A stretch of 64,000 bases of DNA, taken from positions 32,001-96,000 of IMG/VR virus record IMGVR_UViG_3300030117_005808. One strand, written 5' to 3'. Of the stretch, positions 20,301 through 54,377 are shown one piece after another. The stretch is from a virus. The position numbers were made by a program, and so were the translations under genes. The stretch's first letter is position 1, and each line of letters opens with the position of its first letter. The notes beneath the pieces are model-generated. The model was not told the origin of the DNA. It ran no database searches and saw only the letters and a program-made list of their open reading frames with translations.

Positions 20301-23300
20301 GCTGCTAGACGAGAACGTTATAAGTAATGCGGCAAGAAAATCCTCATATAAACAAATCATTGATGATTTTAGCATTTATGATAGTTTCTTAGACGAACAG
20401 AAGCCTATACTTCAAATTAATAGTTTAAAATATAGAGAAACTGTGTTCCCTCCACAACTACATGCTTATACTAGTAAAATACGCGGAAGAACAAACTATG
20501 AAAATGATTTCTGGCGTGACAGCCGAACAGATAGGACTGCTAAGGGAGCCTTGAAAAAAGCCAAAAACAGTCAAGGTACCGCCGTTCTTCAAAGCGCGTG
20601 GTCACTTGATGGCCTAGAATCTAATACAAATTCTAATATTGCAACTGGCCTGATTGGATATCCAACAGGTGGCATCAACGCCAATAACGCAACTGGGTAC
20701 AAACCCGGTGAACTTCAGAACTTATATACACATTTTGTAAGAGCACCTGACGGCCGAGATGTTAATTCCGAATTAAGGAATCAGTTGAGAACAGGCGCCT
20801 TATACTCTAGAAAGCATCTCATGCCTTTTACTTCATCAGTTGTTGGTATGTCAGGGATGAGGAAACAAATCGGTATTGAACCATTTGTATACGGCGGCAC
20901 AAGTTATTTGCTGTTAACATCATCTATTGGGGCTGGTGAAGCTTTTTGGGACGCAGGAAACTTAGCAGGTAAATACGAGGGTACGTCTAGCATCTTTGTT
21001 ACAACCCCAGCGAAACCATTTTATGATGATTACGATCAATATTTTGCAGATATAAAAAATAAAAATCGAGGTAAAGCGATTTTGCCAGAGTTTAGAATAA
21101 CAGAACATTTAGATTTTTATGAAAATGAGGGCAACAATTTTCTTGTTGAAAATGAAAAACTTTTTTCTTTCGCCGGAACCCCCTCGGGCTCTTCTTTGCC
21201 GCAAAATAGTTCAGAGGCAGACTTTTTCTCGATTTACACAAACTCAGATTTTATGAAATATTTTGAAGTAGTGAGAGAGGATGGAGCCAAAGAGGGTGGC
21301 ATTTTGGAGCCCACAGCAGTTAAATTGCGATGTAGGGGGATCAAAAAGTTTATTCCGTATGATGGCTTTTACCCTGCCGAAAGAACCATCCAATTGGCGA
21401 ACGCATTTTCAGCGTCAATAGCACCTACAACAGGCTTGACGGGCGATGACGCAGCAAAGCAAGTTGCTTTCCGTAGCATGCTCAAGCCTTTTTTCGCCCC
21501 CGGAATTGTATACAATACTATCAAGTCGGGTGTTGCTGTTGACTATCCAATAATGACTGGCTCTTTTAATAGAGCAAACTTAATCAACTCTGCTGCTAAT
21601 GCGGGTATTAGATTTTGCACTACAGCCTCTGCTGGAATATTTTCTAACTCAAGGGCTGTTTCGGTGACACCCTCTGGTGATGGTAGCGGCTTTGGAACGG
21701 TCTCACACAATGATGGTTGGGATTATCGTGTGCCGTTTGAGGCTGTGGTTGATCCAGCAAAATATGTATACGCCAAAAACATTGTCGATGACGAGCCCAG
21801 TGCTTATGCTAATATTCACTCAACAGCTTCGTGGGCCACCTCTCTGGCCACCAATAAATATAAATATATGATGCACAATTTCCTAGCTTCGTCTTTAGAT
21901 TTCTTTATTAAAGACGGCAAACCAACAGAAATTATATCAGCACCAGAAAGTGAATTTAAGTCTGTCACACCCGGCCAGCCTTACGGCCTACGCATTAAAA
22001 TGTTTAAGAGTTATGAAACGGGCTCACAAAATCCGACCTCTGGTGACTGGGGCGACTTTTCTGTGCCTCAGTTTGTTAGTGGCTCACTATCAAACTTTAC
22101 AATGTATAGTCGCCCCTCGGCCTTCGGTCCTCCCGTCTTGGCCGGCTCCGGATCTAGTACACTGGCACAACAAAAATACGTTGTCACAGGATCAAGAGAG
22201 ATGACCCCGGCTCGCGGCCGCTACCTGTCCCATACACCACCGTATTATGATGGTGAATCTTGGATTGATTTAATTTATTATCCGTACAAGTCTTTCGATA
22301 CAGGATCCGGCGGTTTGCTTATAGAAAACAATCAAACCAAAGTAGTGCGAATTGATGAACTACACAACCTTGCACTATCTGAATTTAACACTGGGTCAGC
22401 AATCTTACAAATAGAGGATTACGAAGGCACTAGATTTGGAGGAGAGGGAACTTATGTTGTTCGCTGGCGTTTTGACCAAGAGGCCCTTCGAGTCGATCGG
22501 CCAGACCTTTCATCTTATCACGACATTGGCAAAGACATCGGCCCTATGGGAGGCCCATGGGCAAACCGGTGGGCAATGCAACTAGATGCATCTCTCAATA
22601 TCTTTACTAAGCTTCGTGGTGCCGGCAGTCTTGCGTCTGAGGCAGTCTCTGCTGATTTGGCAGGCCTCGGTGCGACCGGAGCGACCGAACCTCAAGATGA
22701 TCGTTGGAGAATCCAAACTAAGTTTGAAACACCAATGTTAAATTTCCAACATGTAAAAACCGCCGATATAACAGTTAATGGCACTCTTGGTAGCTTAACA
22801 CAATATCAAAAGGCAGTGAATAGTGTTATACCAAGAGGTATGTGGCACCAATTTGGTAGAATTCCAAAACCTGACGAAGGAGTATACTTGCAGGTAACAG
22901 ATATTCCAGACGATTTTATAAACAATCACCCATCATCAAGTATCGTGTTTGACCCAGCCGGTCATTTTGACTCAAGAAATAGTGCCTCAGAAGCAATAAA
23001 AGCTTTGGCTGATGTTAATGCAGGCGCAAATATACGCGATATAATTGCAAAAGATTTGAACGGATACAGGATACCTCAGAATTTACAAATACCCGCCTCT
23101 GCATTCTCTGTAGCCACCGACCGCCCACCAGCACCAACTACACCTCCCCCTTTATCACTTGTTGACATATGTGGCTTCCCCACAGATCCAGTAAAAATTG
23201 GAGAGTTGCCAGAAGCTAAAACTGTTTATGAGGCTGTTGTTGCGGTGCCCTTTGTTGAGAAAGAAGGTGAAAGAGAGTTCTTTAAAATTATGTCTCCAAA

Positions 23301-33338: not shown

Positions 33339-34679
33339 ATGCCTCTTTATAAGTTCGGGGCCGGGGATGTATTTTACAATCAGTTAAGAACATACCCCAG
33401 TTGTTCTTTTTTGATTATGTCGGGTAGCGAAACAGGCGCCGGCACAGTTTTTTATCAGGGAAAGTCAACAGAGCCCGGCTCAATCGTTGCAAATGTTAAC
33501 GGTGTTCCTGTTGGTAATATAAGCTTATTTGAGCTTAATGTTGATCGTGCCGCAACTTCTACTGGTAGAGTTATCGGTTTGTCATCATCTGTTGGTACAC
33601 AAAACGTTGTGGATAACGGAACAATATATCCGTTTATAGAAAAAGGTTTGTCTAAAGTAGGCTTTAAGGGTCTTACAAGAGAACAGTTTATCAACGACTA
33701 TGCCCAAGGCGACGTTATAACTGGTTCTTATTTTATGTCTGCCAGCTTAACAAGAAGAAAATACATTGCCTCCGCAGGTTTTAACGACGCTAATAGAGAT
33801 GGCGCTGCTCTTAAAAACAGTCTAGATTTTGCAAAACGCCTCGGAGATCATTATGATTTCCCATCTGGATCATCTGGTACCACTACTACTATTGACATTC
33901 CATCTATATATTACGGATCAGGTATCAAGCCGGGTACTGTATCTCTCGAAGTGTATGTCACTGGAACTCTTCATACGCGATGTCGGGATTCTAGATACGA
34001 TGGCGCATTGATACAAGATTTTGTGGTTGGGTCAGACCACGGCGCCTCCAGCACCCCAACTAATGGCACAGTTGTCGGTTGTATATTATATAAAGAGGGC
34101 GTTATAATACTGAACAATACTACTAGCTTCCTCGGCCCTAGCACTAGTGTCCCCAACACACCCGGCACCGGTACCGAGAGCCGATATTCAAGCCCAGATA
34201 ACCAATCTATTTCATCTACTGGTAACAATTGGAATTGGACAATATTTGGAGTGGGGATTCAGAATGGTCCTAACGTGCCGAAACTCGATACTCTCTCTAA
34301 TGGATGGCAGGTAGCAAAAAAAGTTTATTATAAGATTAATTTCGCAGGCACCCACAAAATCCCAACCGTCACAATGCTTGCCAACGCAAACCGAGGCGAG
34401 TTAAACTATACGAACAACCCAACTTATATTGAGTTTGGCCAAACGGCTTACAACCCAGTAACAAGTTCTACATTCTTTGGTGAGCAACAGTTAAATATCA
34501 AGAATATTCACTCTTCTTCCTATTCAGATCCTACTGGGAGCTTAAAGAAGACCACATATATTACCAAGATTGGCATTTACGATGATAAGAAAAAGCTTAT
34601 CGGTGTTGCTTCTGTAGCCAAGCCAGTCAAGAAAACTGAAGATAGAGACTTGACATTTAAATTAAAGCTTGACATCTAG
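33339..34679 (+). CDS. Baseplate structural protein, paralogue of 32215..33327
   Basis: C-terminal LNYTNNPTY...YITKIGIYDDKKKLIGVASVAKPVKK...FKLKLDI. Confidence 0.55.
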   Translation: MPLYKFGAGDVFYNQLRTYPSCSFLIMSGSETGAGTVFYQGKSTEPGSIVANVNGVPVGNISLFELNVDRAATSTGRVIGLSSSVGTQNVVDNGTIYPFIEKGLSKVGFKGLTREQFINDYAQGDVITGSYFMSASLTRRKYIASAGFNDANRDGAALKNSLDFAKRLGDHYDFPSGSSGTTTTIDIPSIYYGSGIKPGTVSLEVYVTGTLHTRCRDSRYDGALIQDFVVGSDHGASSTPTNGTVVGCILYKEGVIILNNTTSFLGPSTSVPNTPGTGTESRYSSPDNQSISSTGNNWNWTIFGVGIQNGPNVPKLDTLSNGWQVAKKVYYKINFAGTHKIPTVTMLANANRGELNYTNNPTYIEFGQTAYNPVTSSTFFGEQQLNIKNIHSSSYSDPTGSLKKTTYITKIGIYDDKKKLIGVASVAKPVKKTEDRDLTFKLKLDI

Positions 34680-34696
34680 CATAATCGTGTTATAAT
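34669..34696 (+). promoter_or_regulatory. Sigma70-type promoter (TTGACA-16-TATAAT, extended -10 TG)
   Basis: TTGACA 34669-34674, TG 34688-34689, TATAAT 34691-34696, directly before the RuvC ATG at 34702. Confidence 0.8.
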
Positions 34697-35229: not shown

Positions 35230-36134
35230 TAAAGAATGTTCTTGGACGAGGCTATCAGTCTGGTGAAGAGCATCTATTCAGTTGTCCATTTTGCGGCCAT
35301 CACAAGAAGAAGATGTCTGTCAATGTGGACAAATCTGTATTCAAATGTTGGATTTGTGACAAGTCAGGCCGAGATCTAGGCTACATTGTCCGCAAGTTTG
35401 GAACCAGAGAAGATCGTGACGAATGGTCCAAGTATGATGACCGTGTTGAAATCACAGATTTTGACTTCTTATTTGCGGAGCCTGAAGCCCCTTCTGAGCA
35501 GCGCGTCTCTTTACCCGACCAACTAGTCACCTTAACAGGTAAGACGCCTTCTGTGGCCTCACAGATTGCTTTAAACTACTTATCGAAGCGTGGGATCACA
35601 AGAGACGACATTCTCAAATGGAAGATCGGGTATTGCCCTGACGGAGAGTATGCTGGTCGTGTGGTTATCCCATCATTCAACGAGAACGGCTATGCAAACT
35701 ACTTTATTGCACGCTCATACGGTGATGCTTGGCCAAGATATAAGAACCCGCCAGCCTCCCGTGACATTATTTTCAATGAACTGTATGTAAACTGGGATGA
35801 AGACATAGTTATAGTAGAGGGCGTCTTTGACGCCATAAAGGCCGGTAATGCAATTCCTCTTCTTGGATCAACGCTTCGTGAATCTTCTGCTCTTTTTCAA
35901 ACCATTATTAAAAGCGGCTGCTCTGTGTATCTGGCTTTGGATGAAGACGCATCCAAAAAGACGCGCTCCATCACTCGCTTACTTATGAAATATGGGGTCG
36001 AGGTTTACGAGATAGACACATCCGGTGTTGAAGATGTTGGAGAAATGACAAAAGAAGAGTTTAAGCACAGGAAAAACAACGCGGCGATTATAGAAAAAGA
36101 CAACTATTTATTGCAAAGGCTTTTTGCTGTTTAG
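35205..36134 (+). CDS. DNA primase (Zn finger + TOPRIM)
   Basis: CPFCGHH...CWIC zinc finger; GRVVIP, YFIARS, YKNP; IVEGVFD and LALDED TOPRIM motifs. Confidence 0.9.
   Translation: MRAEKLKIIKNVLGRGYQSGEEHLFSCPFCGHHKKKMSVNVDKSVFKCWICDKSGRDLGYIVRKFGTREDRDEWSKYDDRVEITDFDFLFAEPEAPSEQRVSLPDQLVTLTGKTPSVASQIALNYLSKRGITRDDILKWKIGYCPDGEYAGRVVIPSFNENGYANYFIARSYGDAWPRYKNPPASRDIIFNELYVNWDEDIVIVEGVFDAIKAGNAIPLLGSTLRESSALFQTIIKSGCSVYLALDEDASKKTRSITRLLMKYGVEVYEIDTSGVEDVGEMTKEEFKHRKNNAAIIEKDNYLLQRLFAV
36103..36110 (+). promoter_or_regulatory. Putative late promoter ACTATTTA driving the leader-tagged gene array
   Basis: Exact motif in the 3' end of primase, 33 nt before ATG 36144. Confidence 0.65.
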
Positions 36135-36143
36135 GGTCACAAA

Positions 36144-36371
36144 ATGAAAACCACCAAATCACAGTTAAAACAAATCATTAAAGAAGAAATGTCAAATGCC
36201 CTCAAGGAGCAAGACGGTGAAGAAATAATGTCTGCCATAGAGGACGTGCCAAAGGCAGCAGAGGACATAGCAGATAAGGTGCGTGATGAGGTTGAAAAAA
36301 TGGCAGAGCCATCTGGCCTCGACCCATCAGTTTTAATGCAGGCTATTGCAGCGTTGTTACAAGCAGATTAA
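36144..36371 (+). CDS. Leader-tagged small protein 1 (putative internal head protein)
   Basis: Begins MKTTKSQLKQIIKEE. Confidence 0.65.
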   Translation: MKTTKSQLKQIIKEEMSNALKEQDGEEIMSAIEDVPKAAEDIADKVRDEVEKMAEPSGLDPSVLMQAIAALLQAD

Positions 36372-36384
36372 GGGAAAATAAACA

Positions 36385-36882
36385 GTGAAAACCACCAAAT
36401 CACAACTGAGACAAATCATTAAAGAAGAAATAAGCAGCATGCTGAACAAACCAAGAACAGCAGACCAGTTTTTAGAAATGATTAAGTCTCAGTTTAGGCG
36501 GGCGGCAACAGAAAAAACTCTTGAAATGATGGCTAAATACTATGATGCAATGGTTAAGACCGCAGCCGAAAGAGCACCGCTTCAACCCAGCGACCCAAAA
36601 GAGATCGCAGCAGAGATTGGTATTGCACAGGACAGTCCTTACCTACGGTGGGCTACTTTCCACCTAAACAAGCTTCAACAAGTACCCAGAGAGGCTTATG
36701 AAATGCTGCCCGCAAGTGACGAACTTACCGCTATGCATTACGACCGCCTCGCAGCAAAAGAGAAAAAGCGAGCAGAGCGAGAGGCAGAGTTGCGCCGCCC
36801 GCGTACACCCGAAGAGAAAAAAGCAGCAGCAATCAAATTTGGTCAAGATATGGCCGCAGGCAAATACGGCCCGCTAGATTAA
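36385..36882 (+). CDS. Leader-tagged small protein 2 (putative internal head protein)
   Basis: GTG start, begins MKTTKSQLRQIIKEE. Confidence 0.65.
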   Translation: MKTTKSQLRQIIKEEISSMLNKPRTADQFLEMIKSQFRRAATEKTLEMMAKYYDAMVKTAAERAPLQPSDPKEIAAEIGIAQDSPYLRWATFHLNKLQQVPREAYEMLPASDELTAMHYDRLAAKEKKRAEREAELRRPRTPEEKKAAAIKFGQDMAAGKYGPLD

Positions 36883-36893
36883 GGAACAGTATT

Positions 36894-37475
36894 ATGAAAA
36901 TCACAAGATCACAACTTAAACAGATTATCAGAGAAGAGTTGGAAGAAGGCGGTCTCGCTGGGCACTACGACAAGGATCGCGACATCGCCGTATCTGACGC
37001 TCTCGTTAATGCGGTGCTTGACATGCAGGAGATGCGTGGCGATGCGTATGCTGTAAAGGTTCTTAGAGAGATGGCTAACGACATTGAAAAAGAAATGGCC
37101 GCAAAAGACGGCCCCACTATGCAAGAGGAAGTGAAAAAACAAAGTATAAAGGCAATAATCAAGCCCATTGGTCGTATGACTCGGTACATCTTGAAAACAC
37201 TCAATTATGATGAAGATCGCGATGTTGACTACGGCATACCGGGGGAAGATCCGGGATTTGTAGATGATAAACAGTGGGTTGAACTTAAAAGTCTTGTTCA
37301 AACAACTCTTTCCAAGATTCCAAAGGCAGGAAGGGCCGATGCTATGTATGATGAAATTATGACCAACATTCAAAAACCTCGCCTTCATCGCACAGAGATT
37401 GCCGACTTTGCGTCTGCTTTTGATGAGTATTTTATCGGGTTAGAGGCTATGGTAAGGGATGGAGATTTAAGATGA
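36894..37475 (+). CDS. Leader-tagged small protein 3 (putative internal head protein)
   Basis: Begins MKITRSQLKQIIREELEE. Confidence 0.65.
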   Translation: MKITRSQLKQIIREELEEGGLAGHYDKDRDIAVSDALVNAVLDMQEMRGDAYAVKVLREMANDIEKEMAAKDGPTMQEEVKKQSIKAIIKPIGRMTRYILKTLNYDEDRDVDYGIPGEDPGFVDDKQWVELKSLVQTTLSKIPKAGRADAMYDEIMTNIQKPRLHRTEIADFASAFDEYFIGLEAMVRDGDLR

Positions 37476-38092
37476 AAATCACCAAAGAACTTTTAGAGCA
37501 AATGATTGAGGAAGCAGCATCGGAGTATGTCTATGGTGTTAAAAACCCCGGTCGTGTTGCTAATCAATACAAGATCAAAACAATCAAAAAAGTTATCTTT
37601 GAAGAGTTATCCGCAAACCTTACTGAGGACGGACACGAAGATACATCCTCAGCTATAAGAAAGTTAAAGACTTCTATTGAAGACGCAGGAGAGATCCTAC
37701 AAGGTCTCCAAGCACACCACGGTGATTTACCATCTTGGTGGATGGGCAAAGTAACTATCGCTGCTGACTATCTTAACAAAGCCAGAGACTATTTCCTTGT
37801 TTCCGGTGATGTGATGCAAGAAGAAGAGTTGGACGAGCGATGCCAGAAAGGTTACAAGACCCATCCAACACGCAAAACAAAAGAGATGTACGGCAAGACT
37901 TACCGCAATTGTATTAAAGCAGAAGGCGAGGAAGTTGAAGAGCGCAAACTAAAACCGGGCGAGAAAAGAAAACTTAAACGACTTGAAAAAGAAGTTCCCA
38001 AAAAAGACTTTACTGACCAGTATGGAAAGGAAGGCGAATCTATTTATTATGCTACCTTGACTAAAATGGCGAAAAAGGATAAGAAAAAATGA
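37472..38092 (+). CDS. Leader-tagged modular protein 4 (putative internal head protein)
   Basis: Begins MKITKELLEQMIEE, with an internal IKKVIFEEL copy; short modules separated by Glu-rich linkers. Confidence 0.65.
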   Translation: MKITKELLEQMIEEAASEYVYGVKNPGRVANQYKIKTIKKVIFEELSANLTEDGHEDTSSAIRKLKTSIEDAGEILQGLQAHHGDLPSWWMGKVTIAADYLNKARDYFLVSGDVMQEEELDERCQKGYKTHPTRKTKEMYGKTYRNCIKAEGEEVEERKLKPGEKRKLKRLEKEVPKKDFTDQYGKEGESIYYATLTKMAKKDKKK

Positions 38093-38706
38093 AAATCACT
38101 AGAGAAAAACTAAAGCAAATCATCAAGGAAGAACTTGAGAGTGCCCTTAGTGAACAACCACGCGCCATGATCGGCGCAGGTATACCCGGCATTATGAAAC
38201 GCCTTAGCCCCGTTCCGGACCATCTGGTACAAAGCTATAAAGGAAAAAAGAAAGTCTATAACACGAATAATGGAAATATTGTGGCATTAGATGATAGGGG
38301 CATTCCTTTTGTTGCATATGCTGATGAGATAGAGAAGAACCCCAATGCGGACTACCAATTCGCGATAGACACGCTTAAAAAAAATGGCTATGTAGAAGCT
38401 TCTCTAAGTGTCCCTATGTCTCCGGCAAATCTTGAAGCACTCACTCTCGGAGCTATCAAAGGGGAAGAGATCGACCGTGGCTATGTACAAAGAGCGCGCC
38501 CAAACTTTAAGAATCAGGACAAAGATATCCCCCGGATTAAACAAGTCATCGGCAAGAGAGAACTATCAGACCCAAGTATGCCTAACTGGGATCCCAGCAA
38601 AAATCAAATAGTTTACTTGGGATCACGGACACTTCGTTCCGGAGATCAGGAAATCTACTTTAAGACATCAAATACTCACAAGTATTATAAAGCATTGTCC
38701 AGATAA
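38089..38706 (+). CDS. Leader-tagged small protein 5 (putative internal head protein)
   Basis: Begins MKITREKLKQIIKEELESALSE. Confidence 0.65.
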   Translation: MKITREKLKQIIKEELESALSEQPRAMIGAGIPGIMKRLSPVPDHLVQSYKGKKKVYNTNNGNIVALDDRGIPFVAYADEIEKNPNADYQFAIDTLKKNGYVEASLSVPMSPANLEALTLGAIKGEEIDRGYVQRARPNFKNQDKDIPRIKQVIGKRELSDPSMPNWDPSKNQIVYLGSRTLRSGDQEIYFKTSNTHKYYKALSR

Positions 38707-38719
38707 AGGGAATAACATT

Positions 38720-39169
38720 ATGAAAACCACCAAACAACAACTTAGACAAATCATCAAAGAAGAGTTAGAGGTCATCCTCACAAACGAGGAGGCAGGCGAA
38801 CTCTTTGGCGAGGGTGTTGAAGCAGAGTTAGAAGAAGAGTTGAACGAAGATCTGACTACTATTATGCAGAATCTTACACCTGAGAATCTTGATTTGATTG
38901 TTAGGTCTATCATTCAGGTTGGCACAACATTTGGTGTTCCGATGCTCGCCGCCGCCCTTGGTAAGTTGGGCCTTGAAGCAGCACAGGCAGCAAGAACAGC
39001 CGGCAAGGCGAAAACGATGATTGGTGATAAGGATTCCGGCAGGTTAGTTGATTTTCTGTATCATGAAATAACAGGTTATAGAGATTTTAAAGGGCAGGAT
39101 AAGCAGTCACTTGAAGATGCCGAAAAAGAGTTCCCAATGGCGCCCGCCCGTCCCCCTATGCCTAAATAA
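38720..39169 (+). CDS. Leader-tagged small protein 6 (putative internal head protein) with a hydrophobic segment
   Basis: Begins MKTTKQQLRQIIKEELEVILTNEE; contains IIQVGTTFGVPMLAAALG. Confidence 0.65.
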   Translation: MKTTKQQLRQIIKEELEVILTNEEAGELFGEGVEAELEEELNEDLTTIMQNLTPENLDLIVRSIIQVGTTFGVPMLAAALGKLGLEAAQAARTAGKAKTMIGDKDSGRLVDFLYHEITGYRDFKGQDKQSLEDAEKEFPMAPARPPMPK

Positions 39170-39179
39170 AAAATAATCC

Positions 39180-39208
39180 TTGACAACAAGTTTGTAACAG
39201 GTTATAAT
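39180..39208 (+). promoter_or_regulatory. Perfect sigma70 consensus promoter (TTGACA-17-TATAAT)
   Basis: TTGACA 39180-39185 and TATAAT 39203-39208, intergenic, AT-rich upstream. Confidence 0.88.
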
Positions 39209-39234: not shown

Positions 39235-42200
39235 TTGAAGATAGCACATATCGCGGATACACACATCCGCAACTATAAGTATCATAGAGAGTATCGTGAG
39301 ATATTCGATCTTATCTATGATAGACTGAAAACAGAGAAAGTTGACTACATTGTTCACTGCGGAGATCTCGCACACACAAAGACACAACTTTCTCCTGAAT
39401 ACTTTGACTTGGCGACATCGTTCTTAAAGAACCTTGCCGACATTGCGCCGACCTACATCATTCTTGGCAACCACGACGGTAACCTAAAGAATGAACACAG
39501 GCAAGACGCAATCACGCCAATCGCAAACGCACTCCGACACCCGAATCTCAACCTGTTAAAGAACGCAGGCGAGACGATTGTCGAAGGCAACATAGCGTTT
39601 AACGTTCTTTCCGTCTTTGATGAAGAGAACTGGGTGAAGCCGACAAGCGACAAACGCATTAACATTGCGCTGTATCACGGCTCTGTGTCCGGTGTTACAA
39701 CCGACACAGGCTGGGTAATGACGCACGGCGACCACCCTATCACAGTCTTTGAAGGGCACGACTATGTGTTCCTCGGGGACATCCACAAAACAAACCAAAT
39801 CCTCGATGACGAGGGACGTGTAAGGTATCCGGGCTCCACTGTTCAGCAGAACTTTGGTGAGACGGATGACAAAGGCTTCCTGCTCTGGAACATCCAAAGC
39901 AAAGAAGACTTTACTTGTGAACACGTTGTAATCCCAAACCCCAAGCCTTTTATAACAATAAACCTAACCCCCACTGGGCGTATGCCCAAAGGCTTGACCG
40001 TGAAGAAGGGTGCAAGATTACGACTTGTGTCTAACAATAATCTATCTCTTGAAGCGATGCGAAAGGCAGTTGATGTCGCAAAGCAACGCTTCAAGCCCGA
40101 TACTATTACATTCTTAAACCGCGCAGCAGGGGAGCGTGGTAATGTTGAAGAAATCACGGACAGTATTCAACAAGACGATATGCGTAATCCACAGATCCAA
40201 GAGGAACTTATCCGCGAGTATCTAGTAGATTACCAAGCCAGCGAAGAACTGATGAAAAAGGTTCTGGACCTTAATACTCTCTACATTAAGAAGGCAGAAG
40301 AGTCCGAGGAGATCTCTAGAAACATCAAGTGGCGTATCAACGATCTACAGTGGGATAATCTGTTTAACTACGGTGAAGGCAATAGAATTGATTTTAATAA
40401 ACTAAACGGAACAGTTGGTATCTTCGGTAAGAACTACTCCGGTAAATCCAGTGTGGTGGACAGCTTATTATATACTTTGTACAACACAACGTCTAAGAAT
40501 GAGCGTAAGAATGTCAACATTATTAATCAAAACAAGGACGAAGGCTCTGGCGAGGTTGTAATTACTATTGGCGATGAGCAGTATTACGTCCGTCGCGGCT
40601 CGTCAAAATACACAAAACGACTCAAGGGTGTGGAAACTCTTGAAGCCAAAACTGATCTTGACTTCTTCAAGGTCGGCCCAGACGGAGAAAAGGTAAGTTT
40701 AAATGGCCTCACAAGAAACGACACAGACAAAAACATCAGAAAGGTATTCGGAACTCTTGATGACTTCCTTCTCACTAGTTTGTCTAGCCAGTTGGATAGT
40801 CTTTCCTTTATTAGGGAAGGTAGCACAAAACGGAAGGAAATCTTGGCAAAGTTTCTCGACTTGGAAATCTTCGAGAAAAAGTTCAGACTAGCGAAGGAAG
40901 ATGCATCTGATATGCGAGGTGCTTTGAAGCGCCTTGAAGGACGCGACTATGATACAGAGATCGAAGAAGCAGAACAAGAGCACACTCAATGTGAAGAGGA
41001 GTTGGATGACCAAAAGGTTAAGTGCGCCGACTTAAGGCAAGAAGTTATTGATCTTAGAGACAACATTACAGAGATAGAAGGTAAGATTGCATCTATCCCT
41101 GCTGAGATGATTGATATTGCAAAAGTCAAAATAGATATTAGACAAAGGCGTCTGGACCTCACCTCGGCACAAAAAGATCTTGAACAAGACAAGAAAACAC
41201 TCAAAGATAAAAAGAAACTTACCAAAGATATTGATAAGTTCTTGGCAGGTTATGACGTTACAGATCTTGGCGATAAAGAAAAGAGGTGCGATCAGCTAGG
41301 CTTTGAGATAATGGATTTGGACAGAGAAATGATCCAGATCGTGAAAAAAGCTGCATCTCTCGACGATCCCGGCTTCTTGCGTGGTTGCAAGTGTTTGCAC
41401 GAAGCAGAAGAAGCTTTAGCACAGAAGCCAGACCTTGAACAAAAAATCGAAGAACTTTCTCAGGAACTTGAAGGGCTTGATGTTGAATCTGTCAAGAAAA
41501 GCCTTGAGCAGTATCGTTCGCTAGCAGATAAAAAGAACCAAACGACGAGAGATATCACAACCACAGAACTTGCTATTGCTCGTAACCAGAATACGATCAA
41601 TCGTCTGGCCACAGAGTTGTCTAATCTAAAAGACAAAGAAACATCTTATGAAGACAACCGTGAAGCTATTGAAAACTTGGAAGCACTCCTGACTGAGAAA
41701 GACGGCTTAGACGCAGATATATCTATTAAGGAAGGTAAGCTAGAGGCTTGCAAAGATAAAATTGTTGATTACCACAGAAGAGTTGGCTCGTTAGAGCAAA
41801 AAGTTATCAACATTAAGGATCAGAAGAACGACTATCTTGAGCTACGCGAACAGTTCGCAGCCTACGATCTTTACATGCGTTGTATGCACCCTAACGGTAT
41901 CGCATACGATGTTATCAAGAAGAAGCTTCCAGTTATCAACCAAGAGATAGCAAAGGTTCTTACAAACCTAACAAACTTTGAAGTCCTTTTTGAAGAGGAT
42001 GGAAATAAGCTTGATATCTTTATCAAGCACCCGAAGCATGACCCTCGTCCACTCTCTATGGCTTCGGGAGCAGAGAAGACAATGGCCGCAATGGCTATCC
42101 GTCTTGCTTTCCTTGCAGTGTCAAACCTGCCTACAAGCGACATTATGGTGCTTGATGAACCGGGGACAGCATTGGATGAGGAGCACTTACAAGCATTTAC

Positions 42201-42333
42201 CCAACTTTTGGACATGATTAAGGTGCATTTCAAGACAACACTTTTGATTTCCCATTTGGATTCTTTGAAAGATGTTGTTGATTTAACACTTGACATTTCC
42301 AAAAAAGAAGGTTATGCTTATATAAACCAATAA
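39235..42333 (+). CDS. Fused Mre11/SbcD nuclease - Rad50/SbcC ATPase (gp47-gp46 fusion)
   Basis: Phosphoesterase motifs IADTH, GDL, GNHD, GDIH; Walker A GKNYSGKSS; coiled coil; signature ASGAEK; Walker B VLDEP; H-loop ISH. TTG start. Confidence 0.9.
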   Translation: MKIAHIADTHIRNYKYHREYREIFDLIYDRLKTEKVDYIVHCGDLAHTKTQLSPEYFDLATSFLKNLADIAPTYIILGNHDGNLKNEHRQDAITPIANALRHPNLNLLKNAGETIVEGNIAFNVLSVFDEENWVKPTSDKRINIALYHGSVSGVTTDTGWVMTHGDHPITVFEGHDYVFLGDIHKTNQILDDEGRVRYPGSTVQQNFGETDDKGFLLWNIQSKEDFTCEHVVIPNPKPFITINLTPTGRMPKGLTVKKGARLRLVSNNNLSLEAMRKAVDVAKQRFKPDTITFLNRAAGERGNVEEITDSIQQDDMRNPQIQEELIREYLVDYQASEELMKKVLDLNTLYIKKAEESEEISRNIKWRINDLQWDNLFNYGEGNRIDFNKLNGTVGIFGKNYSGKSSVVDSLLYTLYNTTSKNERKNVNIINQNKDEGSGEVVITIGDEQYYVRRGSSKYTKRLKGVETLEAKTDLDFFKVGPDGEKVSLNGLTRNDTDKNIRKVFGTLDDFLLTSLSSQLDSLSFIREGSTKRKEILAKFLDLEIFEKKFRLAKEDASDMRGALKRLEGRDYDTEIEEAEQEHTQCEEELDDQKVKCADLRQEVIDLRDNITEIEGKIASIPAEMIDIAKVKIDIRQRRLDLTSAQKDLEQDKKTLKDKKKLTKDIDKFLAGYDVTDLGDKEKRCDQLGFEIMDLDREMIQIVKKAASLDDPGFLRGCKCLHEAEEALAQKPDLEQKIEELSQELEGLDVESVKKSLEQYRSLADKKNQTTRDITTTELAIARNQNTINRLATELSNLKDKETSYEDNREAIENLEALLTEKDGLDADISIKEGKLEACKDKIVDYHRRVGSLEQKVINIKDQKNDYLELREQFAAYDLYMRCMHPNGIAYDVIKKKLPVINQEIAKVLTNLTNFEVLFEEDGNKLDIFIKHPKHDPRPLSMASGAEKTMAAMAIRLAFLAVSNLPTSDIMVLDEPGTALDEEHLQAFTQLLDMIKVHFKTTLLISHLDSLKDVVDLTLDISKKEGYAYINQ

Positions 42334-45942: not shown

Positions 45943-47916
45943 ATGGCAGATCAAAATAGAAACCCAAGAAACCCAAGATCAGAATTGTTTAAGGCTCTGA
46001 CTAGAGTTTTCTCTGGTCCACTAACAACTAGAAGAACACAGACCGGCCGTAGACTGAGAAGGTATCAACTGGACAAATTCCAGAGTAGATTTACTTCTGC
46101 TAGTGGTCAGTCTTTTAAAACCGCTCGTTCATATAATGCATACAATATGCAACTGGGGATTATGAACCAACACAACCGCACCGAGAGGTATGTTGATTTT
46201 GACCAGATGGAGTACACTCCAGAGATAGCGTCAGCCCTTGATATTTATGCTGATGAGATGACCACGCATTCCTCGTTACAGCCAATGCTTAATATTAAAT
46301 GTTCGAATGAAGAAATTAAAGCGGTCCTTGATTCCTTGTATCACAATATTTTAAATATCGATCACAATCTTTTCGGCTGGTGTCGCTCTATGTGCAAGTA
46401 TGGGGATTTCTTCCTGTATCTTGACATAGATGAGAAGTTCGGTATTAAGACCGGCATTGGACTGCCTTCTAGGGAGGTGGAGCGCCTCGAAGGTGAGGAC
46501 GAGACAAATCCAAACTATGTCCAGTACCAGTGGAACACAGCGGGTATAACTTTGGAAAATTGGCAAATGGCCCACTTCCGAATCCTTGGGAACGACAAGT
46601 ATGCACCATATGGAACGTCTGTTTTAGAACCTGCCCGTCGCATCTTTCGTCAACTAATTCTTTTGGAAGATGCTATGATGGCATACCGTATTGTTCGCTC
46701 TCCGGAGCGCCGAGTAATAAAAATTGATGTTGGCCAGATCCCTCCTAATGAAGTAGAGCAGTATGTTCAAAAAGTCATCACATCAATGAAACGAAACTCT
46801 GTTGTTGACGAAAACACAGGCCGAGTTGATCTTCGATACAACCCTCTGTCTATTGAGGAAGATTATTACATCCCCGTTCGCGGAGAATCAAAAACAGAAA
46901 TTACATCTTTACCCGGTGGAACATTTACCGGTGACATCGACGACGTTAAATACCTCAGAGACAAACTATTCTCTGCTCTTAAAATTCCTGCTTCCTATCT
47001 AACAAATGCTGAAGGTGCTGAGGAGGATAAAACAACGCTTGCCCAGAAAGATATTCGTTTCGCCAGAACAATTCAGAGACTACAGAGAGTTGTGGTGTCT
47101 GAGCTAGAAAAAATTGGTATTATCCATCTTTACACTTTAGGATTTAGAGACGAAGATTTGTTAAATTTTGAGCTTGCACTTAATAATCCGTCCAAAATCT
47201 CGGAATTACAAGAGCTAGAGCACTGGGATAAAAAGTTTGCAGTCGCGGGCGCAGCCACAGAAGGCTTCTTCTCACGCCGTTGGGTCGCCGAGCATCTATT
47301 CTGTATGTCCCACGAAGAGTTTGAAAGAAACCAAAGAGAAATCTTCTACGATCGTAAGTTTGATGCTTCGCTTGCAGCCGTTGCAGAGGCGATGCAAGAA
47401 GAGGCAGCAGGAGCAGGCCTTGGTGATCTTGGAGGCGATGAAGGCCTTGGAGATCTTGGGGATCTTGGCGATGAGGACCTTGGTGGCGATCTCGAAGATC
47501 TCGGCGGTGATGAGCCCGCAGCAGAGGAGCCAGCAGAACCTGAGATTGGTGATGACCCACTCTTAGCCGCCCCCGGTCGAAGAGAAGATGATGGTTATAC
47601 GACCCCCGGATCCAAAGGTAAGGTTTATTATCCTGTTAAGAAAGGACGCGACAACAGGGCAAAAGGTGCCATGAAGCGTCACCGTTCATCTGTAGCAGGT
47701 ACAAATATGGATCCTCGCAAGACTTTCCCCGGTAAGAGTGGTTATGGAGGCTTAGATTCCTTAGCCAAGGGGATGTTTGAATCGAAAGAAACTAATTATG
47801 ATAATGGTTTTAGAACCGAGGAAGAAAAGATACATAATACTAACTTTGAAGTCAAAAGACTATTGGAAAGTTTAGGTAACTCAACGGAGATTAGCAATGA
47901 AACTAAGGCACAATAA
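45943..47916 (+). CDS. gp20: Portal protein (gp20-like) with acidic low-complexity C-terminal extension
   Basis: EDAMMAYRIVRSPERRVIKIDVG, EEDYYIPVRG, DDVKYLRDKLFSALKIP. Confidence 0.93.
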   Translation: MADQNRNPRNPRSELFKALTRVFSGPLTTRRTQTGRRLRRYQLDKFQSRFTSASGQSFKTARSYNAYNMQLGIMNQHNRTERYVDFDQMEYTPEIASALDIYADEMTTHSSLQPMLNIKCSNEEIKAVLDSLYHNILNIDHNLFGWCRSMCKYGDFFLYLDIDEKFGIKTGIGLPSREVERLEGEDETNPNYVQYQWNTAGITLENWQMAHFRILGNDKYAPYGTSVLEPARRIFRQLILLEDAMMAYRIVRSPERRVIKIDVGQIPPNEVEQYVQKVITSMKRNSVVDENTGRVDLRYNPLSIEEDYYIPVRGESKTEITSLPGGTFTGDIDDVKYLRDKLFSALKIPASYLTNAEGAEEDKTTLAQKDIRFARTIQRLQRVVVSELEKIGIIHLYTLGFRDEDLLNFELALNNPSKISELQELEHWDKKFAVAGAATEGFFSRRWVAEHLFCMSHEEFERNQREIFYDRKFDASLAAVAEAMQEEAAGAGLGDLGGDEGLGDLGDLGDEDLGGDLEDLGGDEPAAEEPAEPEIGDDPLLAAPGRREDDGYTTPGSKGKVYYPVKKGRDNRAKGAMKRHRSSVAGTNMDPRKTFPGKSGYGGLDSLAKGMFESKETNYDNGFRTEEEKIHNTNFEVKRLLESLGNSTEISNETKAQ

Positions 47917-48724
47917 GAAAAGAAATACTGCTTTCTTGTATGAGGCGCTTGTTAAAGAGTTGACGAAGGCCATCGTTAATAAAGATATAAAAAAGAAAAA
48001 CGCTTTAGTTTCCACGCTGAAAGAAAATTTCTCTACTGGGCAAGTTCTTCAAAAAGAGTTGGAACTGATTAGAACTTTGTCCGAGACCAAGAGAGTAGAT
48101 ATGTTCACAGCAGAGCGGTTGTTATCAGAATCGGTTTCTCGTTACTCCAAATTGGACGCAGACAAAATTTTTGAAGCACAGTCTAGACTTATAGAAAATA
48201 TTAATAAAAACTTTGGTAAAGAAGTTTATAGCAATTTTGTACCAAACTACAAGCACCTCGCTACTATCTGGCAATTGTTTACACAAAATACTTCTGTAAA
48301 AGAAAAAGTTCTTTTAGAGAAAGCCTTAGTTTTTTCTATGACTACAAAAGGTAAAGAACCCGTTAAGGCAAAACAAATGCCCCATGTTGACAAGCTAGTG
48401 TTTAAAACTGTTATTGAAAATTTTAACAAGTCTTATGATGGTGAACTTTTAACAGAACAAAAACAATTATTAAATAACTATATTGTCTCGTTCGGCGCAA
48501 ATGAAGTGGAATTCAAAGTATACCTTAATGAAGAGCTTGGAAGGCTAAAAAACGAAATATCTTTACTTAAAGAAAAAGAAATAATGCTTGAAAATAAAGA
48601 CCTTTTTAGCAAGTTAGGAGACGTTAGAGTAACGCTTGATAAATTTCAAACTGAAAAAATTAATCCCACAATGCTAGAAAAAATTATGCAGGTGCAAAAA
48701 CTTGTGAAGGAATGTTCTGAATAA
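47897..48724 (+). CDS. Hypothetical helical protein, possible prohead core component
   Basis: Lies between portal and protease; HNKKRNTAFLYEAL start; multiple L-x-E sites; ACTAATTA motif at 47791. Confidence 0.55.
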   Translation: MKLRHNKKRNTAFLYEALVKELTKAIVNKDIKKKNALVSTLKENFSTGQVLQKELELIRTLSETKRVDMFTAERLLSESVSRYSKLDADKIFEAQSRLIENINKNFGKEVYSNFVPNYKHLATIWQLFTQNTSVKEKVLLEKALVFSMTTKGKEPVKAKQMPHVDKLVFKTVIENFNKSYDGELLTEQKQLLNNYIVSFGANEVEFKVYLNEELGRLKNEISLLKEKEIMLENKDLFSKLGDVRVTLDKFQTEKINPTMLEKIMQVQKLVKECSE

Positions 48725-49655: not shown

Positions 49656-49675
49656 AACGTCAATTGGAGATAACT

Positions 49676-50290
49676 ATGGGAAAATCACTTTTACGAGAAT
49701 ATTACGCACTTTGTGATGGTGGCGTCTGTCAAGACTTACTGACTGAAGAAGAAAAGAAGTTGATGTCCGCCGGCAAGAAGTTTTACATGACCGGCTGCAT
49801 GCAGAAGTTTGATACACCAAACGGAAACGGTCGCGTTTATTCCAAAGAGATCCTCCAACGCGAAGTAGAAAACTATTGGAAACTTGTCAAGGAGCGTAGA
49901 GCACTTGGTGAGTTAGACCATCCCGATGACTCTGTTATTAACTTAAAGAATGCATCTCACCTTGTAACAGACATGTGGTGGGACGGCCCCGCTCTTATGG
50001 GCAAGGTCGAGGTTCTAGATACACCATCAGGCAACATTTTAAAACAACTGGCTAACTCTGGTGTCACACTTGGCATTTCATCCCGTGGCCTTGGGTCAGT
50101 CAAAGAGGTTCGCGGAACTACAATGGTCGAAGACGATTTTCAACTTATCTGCTTTGATTTCGTCTCGGAACCATCTACTCCCGGTGCTTTCATGCATTCC
50201 GATAAAAGAATGCGAGAACACAAAGAACCAAATATTTTTACAAAAGCAGATAAGATAAACAGAATCTTAAATAATATTTTGAGAGATTGA
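49676..50290 (+). CDS. gp21: Prohead core protease (gp21-like)
   Basis: NGNGRVYS, ALGELDHPD, SHLVT, GISSRGLGS, DFVSEPSTPGA; ATG 49676 preceded by GGAG. Confidence 0.93.
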   Translation: MGKSLLREYYALCDGGVCQDLLTEEEKKLMSAGKKFYMTGCMQKFDTPNGNGRVYSKEILQREVENYWKLVKERRALGELDHPDDSVINLKNASHLVTDMWWDGPALMGKVEVLDTPSGNILKQLANSGVTLGISSRGLGSVKEVRGTTMVEDDFQLICFDFVSEPSTPGAFMHSDKRMREHKEPNIFTKADKINRILNNILRD

Positions 50291-50291
50291 G

Positions 50292-50720
50292 ATGAAAAGA
50301 ACAGAACTTAAAAAATTAATAAAGCCATTAGTAAAAGAATGTGTCCAAGAGACGATTTTAAATGATGGTCTTTTATCAAATATAGTCTCTGAGGTAATGC
50401 AAGGAATGGGAAACCAGTTCCTCGTAGAAAATAAAGAACAGGTTGTTCCCACAATGTCTAACGAAAACAGTGTACAACTAGAACAACTAAAAGAAAGACA
50501 ACAAGAGACTAGAAAACGATTGCTTGATGAAATAGGTCACGATGCTTACAATGGTGTTGACCTTTTTGAAGGCACGACGCCTATTAGAGATAGCGGGCAA
50601 CCCTCCGCGACGGCTCAAGCGAACCCAATGTTTGGTCAGGATCCTGACGATGCAGGCGTGGACATTTCATCGATCGTCGCATTAGGTGGAAAAAACTGGA
50701 AAGCTTTAGCGAGTAACTAA
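50292..50720 (+). CDS. Hypothetical head protein with a leader-like N-terminus
   Basis: MKRTELKKLIKPLVKECVQE resembles the array leader; directly after the protease. Confidence 0.55.
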   Translation: MKRTELKKLIKPLVKECVQETILNDGLLSNIVSEVMQGMGNQFLVENKEQVVPTMSNENSVQLEQLKERQQETRKRLLDEIGHDAYNGVDLFEGTTPIRDSGQPSATAQANPMFGQDPDDAGVDISSIVALGGKNWKALASN

Positions 50721-51219: not shown

Positions 51220-51495
51220 ATGAGCTACCATAATAGAAGAGGCAATCGAGGACGCAATCCAAAAAAGTTTTATTATAAGACAAGACGACCTGCCCACGTT
51301 GCTACCTACGCCAAAGAAGGCGAACATCCAGAACGCACTATAAAACGTTTCCTTAAGAAGTGTAAGAAGGAAAAAATCATAGAGCAAGTAAGAAAATACG
51401 ATTATTACGAAAAGCCATCTGTTAAGCGAAAACGAGCTAGATCTAGACGCAAAGCGGTTCTAAAAAAGCTAAATGAGCAAAACAAGAAGACATAA
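51220..51495 (+). CDS. rpsU: Phage-encoded 30S ribosomal protein bS21
   Basis: EGEHPERTIKRFLKKCKKEKIIEQVRKYDYYEKPSVKRKR matches the bS21 core (E..E.ALRRFK......G...E.R....YEKPS..RK). Confidence 0.85.
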   Translation: MSYHNRRGNRGRNPKKFYYKTRRPAHVATYAKEGEHPERTIKRFLKKCKKEKIIEQVRKYDYYEKPSVKRKRARSRRKAVLKKLNEQNKKT

Positions 51496-51564: not shown

Positions 51565-52536
51565 ATGCCAACACTCTTAGAACAAGCTATTATTGATGCA
51601 CAAGAACTTAGAGACGCCGCGCTAAAGAACGCCGAGTCTACTATTCTAGAAAAGTATAACAACGAAGTGAAGAATGTTGTTGAAACCCTCTTGGAGCAGG
51701 AAGAGGAAATGATGGGGGCTATGGAAGAACCTGCCTTCGCCGCTGCCGAAGAAGAGGAAATGTGTCCTTGCCCGGACAAGGAAGAGGAAGAGACCGTAAT
51801 GTTCAGTCTTGATGACCTAAAAGCCATGGCTGATGAACTTGACGGTGATGCTCTTGGGACTCCCGAGGATCAAGAAGATCTTATGACTGATCTTGGAATG
51901 GAGCCCGAAGAAGAGGAAGACACACTTCCCCTTCAAGAAGATCTTCAGTTGGTTGAAGAAGAAGTTGAACTCGATGAAGCTACAATCAAAGAACTTGTTG
52001 AAGAATTGGTTGTTGATGTTGTGCCTACCAAGAGTGGCTGGCTAGCAACTCCTCAAGGCGAGATGCAATATGCAGAAGAATTAGAATTGGCTAGACTGGC
52101 TAGCACAGAGGCCCAAGAGCAGATTAAAGCTCTTAAGGATGCCCGTGACCGTCTAACCATCACAAACGAATCTTTGACAAGCGACAATAAGAAGCTTGTT
52201 GAGGGCATCTTAGCATTGAAAGAGAAGGTTGAACAAACCCTCTTGGAAAATGCGAAACTACTCTATATGAATCAGGCATTGAATAGTGCCTCCCTGAATG
52301 AGCGACAAAAGTCAAACGTTGTCGAGTCTATTCGCAAGGCTGATTCTGTTGAAGAGGCGAAGGTAATATTTGAAACCCTTCAAAGCGCAGCGGGCGATTC
52401 TACTCGTAGAAAGCCAAAATCGTTGAGCGAAGCAATCAGTAGACCTTCATCGACATTGCCAAGACGAAGAAAAGAAAGAGCACAAGGGGAAACCATTGTG
52501 AAGGATCGATTCCAAAGATTGGCAGGACTTAAATGA
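51565..52536 (+). CDS. Prohead scaffold / core protein (gp22-like)
   Basis: Very acidic coiled-coil protein directly before the major capsid gene; many L-x-E sites; ends RFQRLAGLK. Confidence 0.8.
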   Translation: MPTLLEQAIIDAQELRDAALKNAESTILEKYNNEVKNVVETLLEQEEEMMGAMEEPAFAAAEEEEMCPCPDKEEEETVMFSLDDLKAMADELDGDALGTPEDQEDLMTDLGMEPEEEEDTLPLQEDLQLVEEEVELDEATIKELVEELVVDVVPTKSGWLATPQGEMQYAEELELARLASTEAQEQIKALKDARDRLTITNESLTSDNKKLVEGILALKEKVEQTLLENAKLLYMNQALNSASLNERQKSNVVESIRKADSVEEAKVIFETLQSAAGDSTRRKPKSLSEAISRPSSTLPRRRKERAQGETIVKDRFQRLAGLK

Positions 52537-52577: not shown

Positions 52578-54377
52578 ATGTCAGTATTAAATAAATTAAC
52601 TGAAGGAATCGTTAACCGCGATCTCCGTCAGGAAGGCGATGCTCTTATCTCCAAGTGGGAAAAGACCGGACTCCTCGAAGGCCTCAATAACGATGTCACG
52701 AAGAACGGTATGGCTCGTCTCCTTGAAAACCAAGCCAAGCAGCTTCTGAAAGAGGCTTCTTCTATGGCAGCAGGCGATGTGGAAGGTTTTGCTTCCGTCG
52801 CTTTCCCGCTCGTTCGCCGCGTGTTCGGTGGTCTTTTGGCCAACGATCTCGTTAGCGTTCAGCCGATGAGTCTCCCAAGTGGTCTCATCTTCTTCCTCGA
52901 TTTCACTTACGAGGCTGGTAAGCTCGGCCTCGCCGCCGGCGAATCCGTCTACGGTGGTGGAGTTGTTGGTAAGGGCATCCAAACGGGTGTCACAGACATC
53001 ACCGAAGAGGGTGGTGGCCTGTATAACTTGCAGAATGGTTACTCGCAAGTAAGTGCTTCGACAACTGTTGCAACTACCATTGTTGCTTCTGGTAACGTCG
53101 GTGTGGGTGGTATTCCCGAGTTTGGTGATACAACTGTTTCTGGCTTTACTGCTGGTTATGACCTTGCTCGTCTTCTGAAGTTCGACGTGGACCTTGTGTC
53201 TGGTTCGGCTTTCGCAGCAGCAACAGTGCCATTGGCTACACTCACAGCAGCAGGCGTGCGATTCAACGAGGATGACTTTGTTGATATCAAGCTTGCCGAC
53301 CAAAGCATTGACGGTGGTCTCGGTACTCTTACTGATGGTCTTCAAGTTCGTCGCTTGACCCAGCTTGACCCAACTGAGAATGCAGCTTCGGCAACTAGGC
53401 TTCTGTTTGTTGTCGCCGCAACTGGTTCGGAAACAACCGCGCAGATGACGACCTCGCTCAACGCTGTTGATCTTGCACTTCACACCATCGTGGATGACTT
53501 CATCGCTGGCGGCGCCATCGGTGCTGTTGTTGGTGATGATACTTGGGGTCTTGAAGAGCCTCAGTTCGGTACCGGCAATGCTGGTTCTACGACGGCTAAG
53601 AACGAGATCCCCGAGATCGACATCAAGGTGGACTCGATTGCTGTTACGGCACAAACCCGTAAGCTGAAAGCTAAGTGGTCGCCGGAACTTGGTCAGGACT
53701 TGAACGCCTACCACAACCTTGATGCCGAGGTTGAGTTGACTAGTGTTCTCTCTGAGCAGATTGCTCTTGAGATCGACCGTGAGATCGTTTCTGATCTTAT
53801 TAACGGTGCAACTGCTGGTACGTTCTATTGGTCGCGCTCTCCGGGCATGTTCCTGAACCGCACAACCGGTGCAGAGATTGGCGCTTCAACCGCCGCTCCT
53901 GACTTCACTGGTACGGTTTCCGAATGGTACGAGACCCTTATCGAGACTGTTAATGATGTCTCGGCACAGATCCACCGCAAGACTCTGCGGGGTGGAGCTA
54001 ACTTCATCGTGACCTCACCTGAAGTTGCTAACATCCTTGAGTTCACCGCTGGTTTCCGTGCAAGCGTCACCGCTGATGCTGATCGTGGCACCGCAGGTGC
54101 TGTGAACGTTGGTGCTATCTCGAAGAAGTTCGACGTGTACGTCGATCCTTACTTCCCTCGCAACGTGCTGCTTGTCGGCCGTAAGGGTGGTAGCTTCCTT
54201 GAGTCGGGCTATGTTTACGCTCCGTATGTGCCGTTACAGGTCACGCCGACTATCTTCGGTACCGAGGACTTCATCCCCCGCAAGGGCGTGATGACTCGCT
54301 ACGCTAAGAAGATGGTCCGTCCTGATATGTACGGTCTGGTCATCTGTCGTGGCCTTCTCGGTGAGTCTGGCGCTTAG
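52578..54377 (+). CDS. gp23: Major capsid protein (gp23-like)
   Basis: VQPMSLPSGLIFFLDF, TRKLKAKWSPELGQDLNAYH, EIDREI, YAPYVPL, GVMTRY; strong SD AAGGAGGTG. Confidence 0.96.
   Translation: MSVLNKLTEGIVNRDLRQEGDALISKWEKTGLLEGLNNDVTKNGMARLLENQAKQLLKEASSMAAGDVEGFASVAFPLVRRVFGGLLANDLVSVQPMSLPSGLIFFLDFTYEAGKLGLAAGESVYGGGVVGKGIQTGVTDITEEGGGLYNLQNGYSQVSASTTVATTIVASGNVGVGGIPEFGDTTVSGFTAGYDLARLLKFDVDLVSGSAFAAATVPLATLTAAGVRFNEDDFVDIKLADQSIDGGLGTLTDGLQVRRLTQLDPTENAASATRLLFVVAATGSETTAQMTTSLNAVDLALHTIVDDFIAGGAIGAVVGDDTWGLEEPQFGTGNAGSTTAKNEIPEIDIKVDSIAVTAQTRKLKAKWSPELGQDLNAYHNLDAEVELTSVLSEQIALEIDREIVSDLINGATAGTFYWSRSPGMFLNRTTGAEIGASTAAPDFTGTVSEWYETLIETVNDVSAQIHRKTLRGGANFIVTSPEVANILEFTAGFRASVTADADRGTAGAVNVGAISKKFDVYVDPYFPRNVLLVGRKGGSFLESGYVYAPYVPLQVTPTIFGTEDFIPRKGVMTRYAKKMVRPDMYGLVICRGLLGESGA

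Follow-up and report, generated by a model that had tools for sequence, protein, structure and literature searches.

A shared N-terminal tag on unrelated proteins of uncultured Far-T4 phages as a candidate capsid-targeting propeptide

Introduction

The internal proteins of T-even phages are a diverse set in which only the capsid-targeting sequence (CTS) is conserved, and it is the CTS that encapsidates them into the scaffolding core (PMC3012670). CTS propeptides of 10-20 residues are removed by gp21, and the related proteases all cut after Glu (PMC5694885). IPI, IPII, IPIII and Alt of T4 carry such a sequence and lose it to gp21 (Mullaney and Black 1996, as cited in PMC5694885; Rao and Black 2010, PMC3012670); in the T4 genome (NC_000866), ipII and ipIII have the start MKTYQEFIAE/A in common (a slash marks a known or putative cut) and diverge thereafter. 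Here we describe a comparable arrangement, an array of six adjacent genes with one N-terminal peptide in common (the tag, or leader), followed in each by an unrelated remainder (the cargo). The array lies in a window of 64,000 nucleotides, which is the whole stretch of DNA analysed and corresponds to bases 32001-96000 of the 106.5-kb virus record IMGVR_UViG_3300030117_005808; coordinates below are window positions. In our view the tag is probably a capsid-targeting propeptide, an analogue of the T4 CTS to which it has no sequence relation.

The likeness to T4 lies in a short N-terminal peptide that sits on adjacent unrelated genes, starts with MK(T) and ends with I-x-E, as well as in the genes around it: a gp21-type S77 protease, a gp22-like scaffold and a gp23-type capsid protein, with a gene set that is polymorphic between relatives. 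The tag differs from the T4 CTS in length (14-22 residues against 10), shows no detectable sequence relation to it and occurs on another scale, with 5-25 genes per genome and 14,570 clusters. Further departures are the tandem polyproteins with internal tags and a joint motif, a long-form double tag, the many acidic cargos and the insertion of tag genes within head and tail operons. Scale, polyproteins and operon-embedded cassettes are what is new with respect to T4, whereas the architecture and the protease family are the same.

A second comparison is offered by phiKZ and SPN3US, where a related protease also cuts after Glu, propeptides are believed to direct proteins to the prohead, extra sites lie inside propeptides and diverged paralogues have identical N-termini (PMC5694885). 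The head and ejection propeptides of those phages, however, mostly exceed 100 residues, and no single portable tag is shared there by thousands of unrelated families (PMC5694885). Their cut follows S/A/G-x-E, with a small P3 residue, whereas P3 is I, L or M here.

Six adjacent genes with a common start

Six co-oriented open reading frames (ORFs) on the + strand fill positions 36144-39169. All of them begin with MK(T/I)T...L.QII.EE and are unrelated in the remainder: M1, K2, T4, L8, Q10, I12, E14 and E15 are invariant in the leader alignment, there is no credible similarity past about residue 22, and BLASTP of the parts that follow residue 22 linked no pair among the six. A preliminary description of this DNA had reported six genes with a common leader followed by divergence, and ORFs, starts, alignment and BLASTP all agree with it, the second start being a GTG; simple paralogy, which it had named among the findings that would speak against its reading, is excluded by the lack of similarity past the leader. 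When a profile of the leader was run against the six-frame translation of the 106.5-kb genome, five of the six array genes were recovered at E values of 1e-8 to 1e-11, the fourth, whose leader is degenerate, scored weakly, and the rest of the genome returned no other match.

Gene 1 (36144..36371, + strand, 75 aa) has a leader of residues 1-22 ending in LKE22 and an acidic helical cargo that is conserved across marine metagenomes, with 43 homologues. An AlphaFold2 (AF2) model made with these homologues reached a predicted local distance difference test (pLDDT) score of 77 and consists of helices 5-22, 24-57 and 61-74; the first is a separate helix that stops at the LKE22 site, and confidence dips in the linker between leader and cargo. 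The leader of gene 2 (36385..36882, + strand, 165 aa, GTG start) resembles that of gene 1 at the DNA level too, contains IKE14 as its sole site and precedes a basic cargo. Gene 3 (36894..37475, + strand, 193 aa) encodes an acidic cargo, the C-terminal part of which reappears in a leader gene at the same insertion hot spot of a related locus (L071). The gene 5 product (38089..38706, + strand, 205 aa) has a leader ending in LSE22 and a basic orphan cargo; there are just six homologues, in which the cargo is conserved and the leaders are different, and the AF2 model from five sequences is poor (pLDDT 51). In gene 6 (38720..39169, + strand, 149 aa), which is acidic, a recurrent 'LTNEE.GE.FGE' module follows the leader. 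Gene pairs 3/4 and 4/5 overlap by ATGA.

Gene 4 (37472..38092, + strand, 206 aa) combines a long-form double leader of about 46 aa, an 'EDGH..SA.RKLKT' module and a basic C-terminal tail. The long form, which makes up its first 46 residues, is recurrent and also stands on members of the gene 1 cargo family (P0012, P0006). Several otherwise different tag proteins (L039, L044, L105, L001) end, like gene 4, in a basic tail 'YAT.TK.AK(K)DKK', and this recurrent tail could be a second conserved end with a role of its own.

Isoelectric points (pI) of the mature products of genes 1-6 are 4.1, 8.8, 4.7, 9.0, 9.2 and 4.4. Searches of the six proteins against Pfam and PHROGs gave no significant family, the ESM Atlas held no usable match for the cargos of genes 3 and 5, and weak matches of the gene 4 cargo within a large cyanophage protein (E 0.03) were judged not meaningful.

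Distribution of the tag

A degenerate DNA pattern for M-K-[IT]-T-x3-L-x-Q-I-I-x-E-E, which by our own estimate carries about 45 bits, so that chance matches should stay well below one, was searched in IMG/VR and matched at least 120 loci, a lower bound. Among the matches listed, 160 proteins begin with MKITKxQLKQIIKEE(L/I) and then diverge. With a relaxed profile we counted 268 tag copies in these loci. Of these, 257 stand at the start Met, and as many as seven such genes form one array. At E ≤ 0.001, a 30-column tag profile (A2) run against 1.84 billion representative proteins gave matches in 14,570 clusters formed at 50% identity.

The nearest cultured relatives of the window's capsid protein are those of Flavobacterium phage immuto (48%), Microcystis phage Mel-JY01 and Rhodothermus phage RM378, and the record is placed on these grounds among the uncultured 'Far-T4' phages (group: PMC4360716). 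The S77 protease family PF03420 was found in 30 of 40 tag-bearing contigs, the other 10 being 9-34% fragments, and in five large tag-bearing contigs the capsid protein is 52-67% identical to that of the window over its full length. Every tag-bearing contig that was tested falls within one Far-T4 clade. Two contigs rated 100% complete by CheckV (G002 and G033) have 12 and 6 tag matches, two others of 79-81% have 5-6 each, and a 242-kb fragment has 25. The preliminary description had expected a leader profile to find many unrelated cargos confined to one phage group, with variable content at this locus, which is what we observe.

The uncultured phage LR756508.1 (484 kb), whose capsid protein is related, bears a divergent version (MRLTERKLRRIVKEEI..VL.E) on 15 genes. 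This version reads M[RK]L[TS]E[RK]KL[RK][RK]IVKEEI..VL.E (L132-L138, ~143-220 kb), with arrays at ~189-195 kb and ~219 kb. Phage immuto, the sole cultured phage in which a tag-like start was found, has one (gene immuto35A_190), and the tag is absent from the genomes of RM378, Mel-JY01, cyanophage S-SM2 and T4. In blastn and tblastn searches of 50,697 cultured or deposited phage records, neither the array nor the 22-aa consensus tag had a relative, and neither did a tag protein from a related phage. Searching the literature for the tag string yielded no paper, and the Far-T4 genomics paper (PMC4360716) makes no mention of such a tag.

Selection on the peptide and the protease-site pattern

Across 257 tag genes the fixed residues are spelled with freely varying synonymous codons: L8 is CTT in 106, TTA in 60, CTA in 58 and CTC in 19 genes, Q10 is CAG in 110 and CAA in 101, and E15 is GAG in 132 and GAA in 119. 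Selection therefore acts on the peptide, which excludes a DNA or RNA element as the conserved unit.

What is conserved in the peptide has the form of a prohead-protease site. A [LIM]-x-E triplet ends at residue 14 in 99% of tag proteins, its middle position being the variable one. A second h-x-E (h, a hydrophobic residue) ends at residue 21 or 22 in 46% of them, compared with 1.2% per position in the cargo, and 65% have a site ending within residues 18-26; the residue after this second site (P1') is mostly Q, G, A or S. Within the array such further sites, already pointed out in the preliminary description, occur in five of the six genes as LKE22/Q, LEE18/G, LTE52/D, LSE22/Q and LNE43/D.

The presumed processing enzyme is encoded in the window itself, as a T4 gp21-type prohead protease (Peptidase_S77; phrog_207, E 1e-52) at 49664..50290 on the + strand. 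The gp23-type major capsid protein (52578..54377, + strand) has an N-terminal propeptide with four L-x-E sites, the last being LLKE59/ASS. Capsid propeptides of the clade retain LTE/G, LLE/G, LLE/N and LL[KR]E/[AS]SSM, and we take the last of these to be positionally analogous to the T4 gp23 cleavage.

Cargo diversity and polyproteins

The 146 full-length tag proteins from the window and the at least 120 loci fall into 116 cargo clusters, 102 of which are singletons. The only Pfam families at E ≤ 0.001 in 135 cargos are LRR (leucine-rich repeat), YkuD, GNAT, AAA_33, FliG_C, EF-hand and DUF6321, which are unrelated to one another and have one or two members each. Cargos range from 46 to 375 aa, some with folded domains, have a slightly negative mean net charge across the clade and are mosaics of recurrent sub-modules. 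Orthologous cargos bear different tag variants followed by variable linkers. That the same cargo bears different tags, together with the separate helix 5-22 predicted by AF2, indicates that the tag is independent of the cargo.

Polyproteins are found among the top profile matches, with 2-4 tag copies in a single ORF; 68 of 168 internal copies have no initial Met. The residues in front of internal copies are biased, with E at position -3 in 38%, N at -2 in 25% and K at -1 in 40%, and a [LIM]xE triplet ends between -7 and -1 in 49% of them against a background of 2.2% per position (about 15% summed, hence some threefold enrichment). In polyproteins P0045-P0194 this takes the form of a joint motif h-x-E-(N/G/S)-K immediately before the internal tag copy. 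Given this enrichment, the polyprotein joints look like processing sites, and the occurrence of the tag inside polyproteins makes it a module of junctions and not solely a signal at the N-terminus.

Genomic positions and promoters

The genomic backbone is conserved among relatives, and tag genes are inserted in it at a few intergenic hot spots, always co-oriented with late genes. The hot spots lie between primase and SbcCD (as in the window), SbcCD and g42548, g43738 and TerL, g49275 and the protease, the protease and g50292, and tail tube and g62064. Gene content at the tag-array locus differs between relatives, and most arrays flank head genes, often adjoining the protease gene.

Around the array in the window are genes for a RuvC-like resolvase, a primase and a fused SbcD-SbcC. 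The preliminary description held that the array nevertheless has a late-type promoter of its own, and ACTATTTA, a promoter-like motif common to virion genes, is indeed present at 36103..36110 on the + strand, 41 nt before the first array ATG. The window contains 12 copies of the motif, all on the + strand, against 3.0 expected; in the whole genome there are 16 on the + strand and none on the - strand, and most of them precede the start of a virion gene by 27-59 nt. Among 251 leader genes of relatives, 19 have a copy 20-50 nt upstream, where 2.6 are expected. The flanking promoters of host sigma type were likewise borne out: sigma-70-type promoters matching the consensus at 12/12 positions stand on the + strand at 34669..34696, upstream of the array and before the RuvC-like and primase genes, and at 39180..39208, downstream of it and before the fused SbcD-SbcC gene. 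Promoters of this type with at least 11/12 matches number ten on the + strand of the genome, against 1.8 expected, and lie mostly just upstream of non-virion genes; the genome-wide scan found none before any virion gene or the array.

The near-perfect TTGACA-N16-18-TATAAT promoters, including those at 34669, 35099 and 39180, suggest on general knowledge a host with the classical sigma-70 consensus rather than a Bacteroidota-type promoter, despite the nearest cultured capsid protein being that of a Flavobacterium phage.

A proposed capsid-targeting function and its alternatives

We propose that the tag is a helix of about 22 residues, MKITKxQLKQIIKEEhxxhLxE, which would dock late-made proteins on the prohead scaffolding core. 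The T4 gp21-type S77 protease would then remove it at I-x-E14 and/or at the second h-x-E at 21/22, leaving the variable cargo within the head. Part of the cargo, enzymes and LRR proteins for instance, may be delivered along with the DNA, and the small acidic helical modules may serve as accessory core proteins. Tag genes behave as swappable cassettes at a few intergenic hot spots of late virion operons, and in some relatives several units are joined into polyproteins with a protease-type site at each joint. Docking, cleavage, packaging and injection are steps that we infer from the distribution, the site pattern and the genomic context described above.

Several observations weigh against this proposal. 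Only analogy connects the tag with the T4 CTS, since profile A2 finds no match in the T4 genome at E ≤ 10. Acidic cargos (pI 4.1-4.7) make up three of the six in the window, whereas IPII and IPIII of T4 are basic. The residue after E14 is nearly always Glu, unlike the small or polar P1' at capsid-protein sites, and for that reason E14 may serve binding rather than cutting; 35% of tag proteins have no second site within residues 18-26. The helix was labelled amphipathic in the preliminary description, a label we do not retain: the hydrophobic moment of the leader is 0.28, a value reached by 23% of shuffles, and thus not significant. Arrays are also found in the tail module (L043, L099). Finally, no terminator-like site was found on the + strand from 35565 to the array end, so that early read-through from the upstream sigma-70-type promoters is possible. 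The capsid-targeting reading, first put forward in that description, nonetheless stands in every prediction that could be computed (spread of cargos, clade, gp21-type protease, L/I-x-E end and virion-gene motif), and is weakened by the poor amphipathicity, the acidic cargos and the possible read-through.

Of the alternatives, the one that survives best, unlikely as we find it, is that the tagged proteins are accessory scaffold or core proteins that are degraded and expelled at maturation, like gp22, gp67 and gp68 of T4, and are neither stored nor injected. Many cargos are small, acidic and helical and are made of shuffled micro-modules, the insertion sites are close to the protease gene, a position that genes 67 and 68 take in T4, and the basic 'AKKDKK' tail in which some proteins end could be a coat-binding end. 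A conserved head-module protein with a tag-like start points the same way. It is encoded directly after the protease gene (50292..50720, + strand), its N-terminus reads M.K.ELKKLIKP..KE, and its family has homologues in 20 loci with the start M(N/K)KxELKKLIKP(L/V)(V/I)KEC. This start had been described beforehand as related to the leader; the leader profile gives it no score, and a profile-profile comparison of the tag with the N-termini of the family (hhalign) yields 72% probability and E 3.4e-5 over 10 columns, so that the likeness is suggestive only. The accessory-core explanation is at odds with the extreme turnover and diversity of the cargos (116 clusters in 146 proteins), with the enzyme and LRR cargos, which are hard to fit to a structural scaffold, and with the scarcity of cargos with many internal L-x-E sites.

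An uncleaved docking helix for some other late structure (the capsid exterior, the portal or neck, the tail or baseplate), or for a shared assembly chaperone, is in our judgement improbable. Late-class expression would suit it, as would the arrays of seven genes that L043 and L099 have between the genes for tail tube and tail chaperone, and LRR cargos would make fitting surface adhesins. Against it stand a protease-type site in which P3 and P1 are invariant and P2 is variable, a second site enriched about 20-fold exactly where similarity stops, and polyprotein joints with further sites; most arrays, besides, flank head and not tail genes.

We give as little credence to a role outside the virion, with the tag acting on intracellular proteins as a degron, a protease-cut timing tag or a host-factor binder. 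Read-through from early promoters could provide for it, enzyme cargos could act in the infected cell, and packaging of the tagged proteins is itself a conjecture on our part. On the other side, only a clade that encodes the S77 protease has the tag, which is missing from the four genomes named above and is found amid late structural genes, together with the virion-gene motif.

Very improbable, and rejected, are a DNA or RNA element (a recombination cassette or translation-initiation region) and plain paralogy of the six genes: the leaders of genes 1 and 2 are similar as DNA and the genes act as cassettes, but the residues stay fixed over 257 genes while synonymous positions vary freely, internal in-frame copies exist without a start codon, and the cargos lack mutual similarity. 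A leader/core arrangement as in ribosomally synthesised and post-translationally modified peptides was also rejected, given cargos of 46-375 aa with folded domains and neighbours that are primase, SbcCD and head genes, with no modifying enzymes.

Should the tag load heads, as we favour, a motif of 22 residues would identify over 14,000 dark-matter protein families, from phages abundant in the ocean, as cargo of the virion or parts of the prohead core. Genes without a family would thereby gain a function class, and candidate injected effectors and counter-defence proteins a searchable catalogue. Cassettes, polyproteins and swappable tags would have brought the internal-protein principle of T4 to a larger scale and given it a modular form, and once one of these phages is cultured the tag could be used as a packaging handle to engineer them.

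More tentatively, and with rather more doubt than belief, we speculate that in this uncultured marine Far-T4 clade one portable tag, together with the tag-joint grammar of the polyproteins, loads thousands of unrelated proteins, enzymes and LRR proteins included, that are delivered to the host with the DNA. If so, this virion-borne effector arsenal would greatly exceed the T4 internal proteins in size and modularity, and phage effectors in metagenomes could readily be found by the tag.

Other features of the head module and neighbouring genes

The head module of the window also includes a T4-type TerL at 44352 and a portal gene at 45943. An acidic scaffold-like protein in the gp22 position (51565..52536, + strand) has the highest [LI]xE density of the genome, 14 sites in 323 aa, and a conserved head-module protein kept in 40 loci (47897..48724, + strand) has the second-highest, 10 sites in 275 aa; the genome mean is 1.2% per position. 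Between the core genes and the scaffold-like gene, 51220-51495 on the + strand encodes a very basic 91-aa homologue of ribosomal protein bS21 (PF01165, E 1.9e-12, above the cut-off).

In the gene downstream of the array (39235-42333, + strand), an SbcD-like (gp47) and an SbcC-like (gp46) part are fused in one ORF of 1032 aa, residues 1-362 matching phrog_100 and residues 295-1031 matching phrog_77. The baseplate and tail region contains two giant + strand ORFs at 3451-10503 (2350 aa) and 14362-23919 (3185 aa). Among the relatives, the contig behind locus L029 (G011) has a TAA stop within its capsid gene match, and the contig behind L011 (G006) carries at 139128-142941 two tandem gp23-type capsid genes, both 52-53% identical to that of the window.

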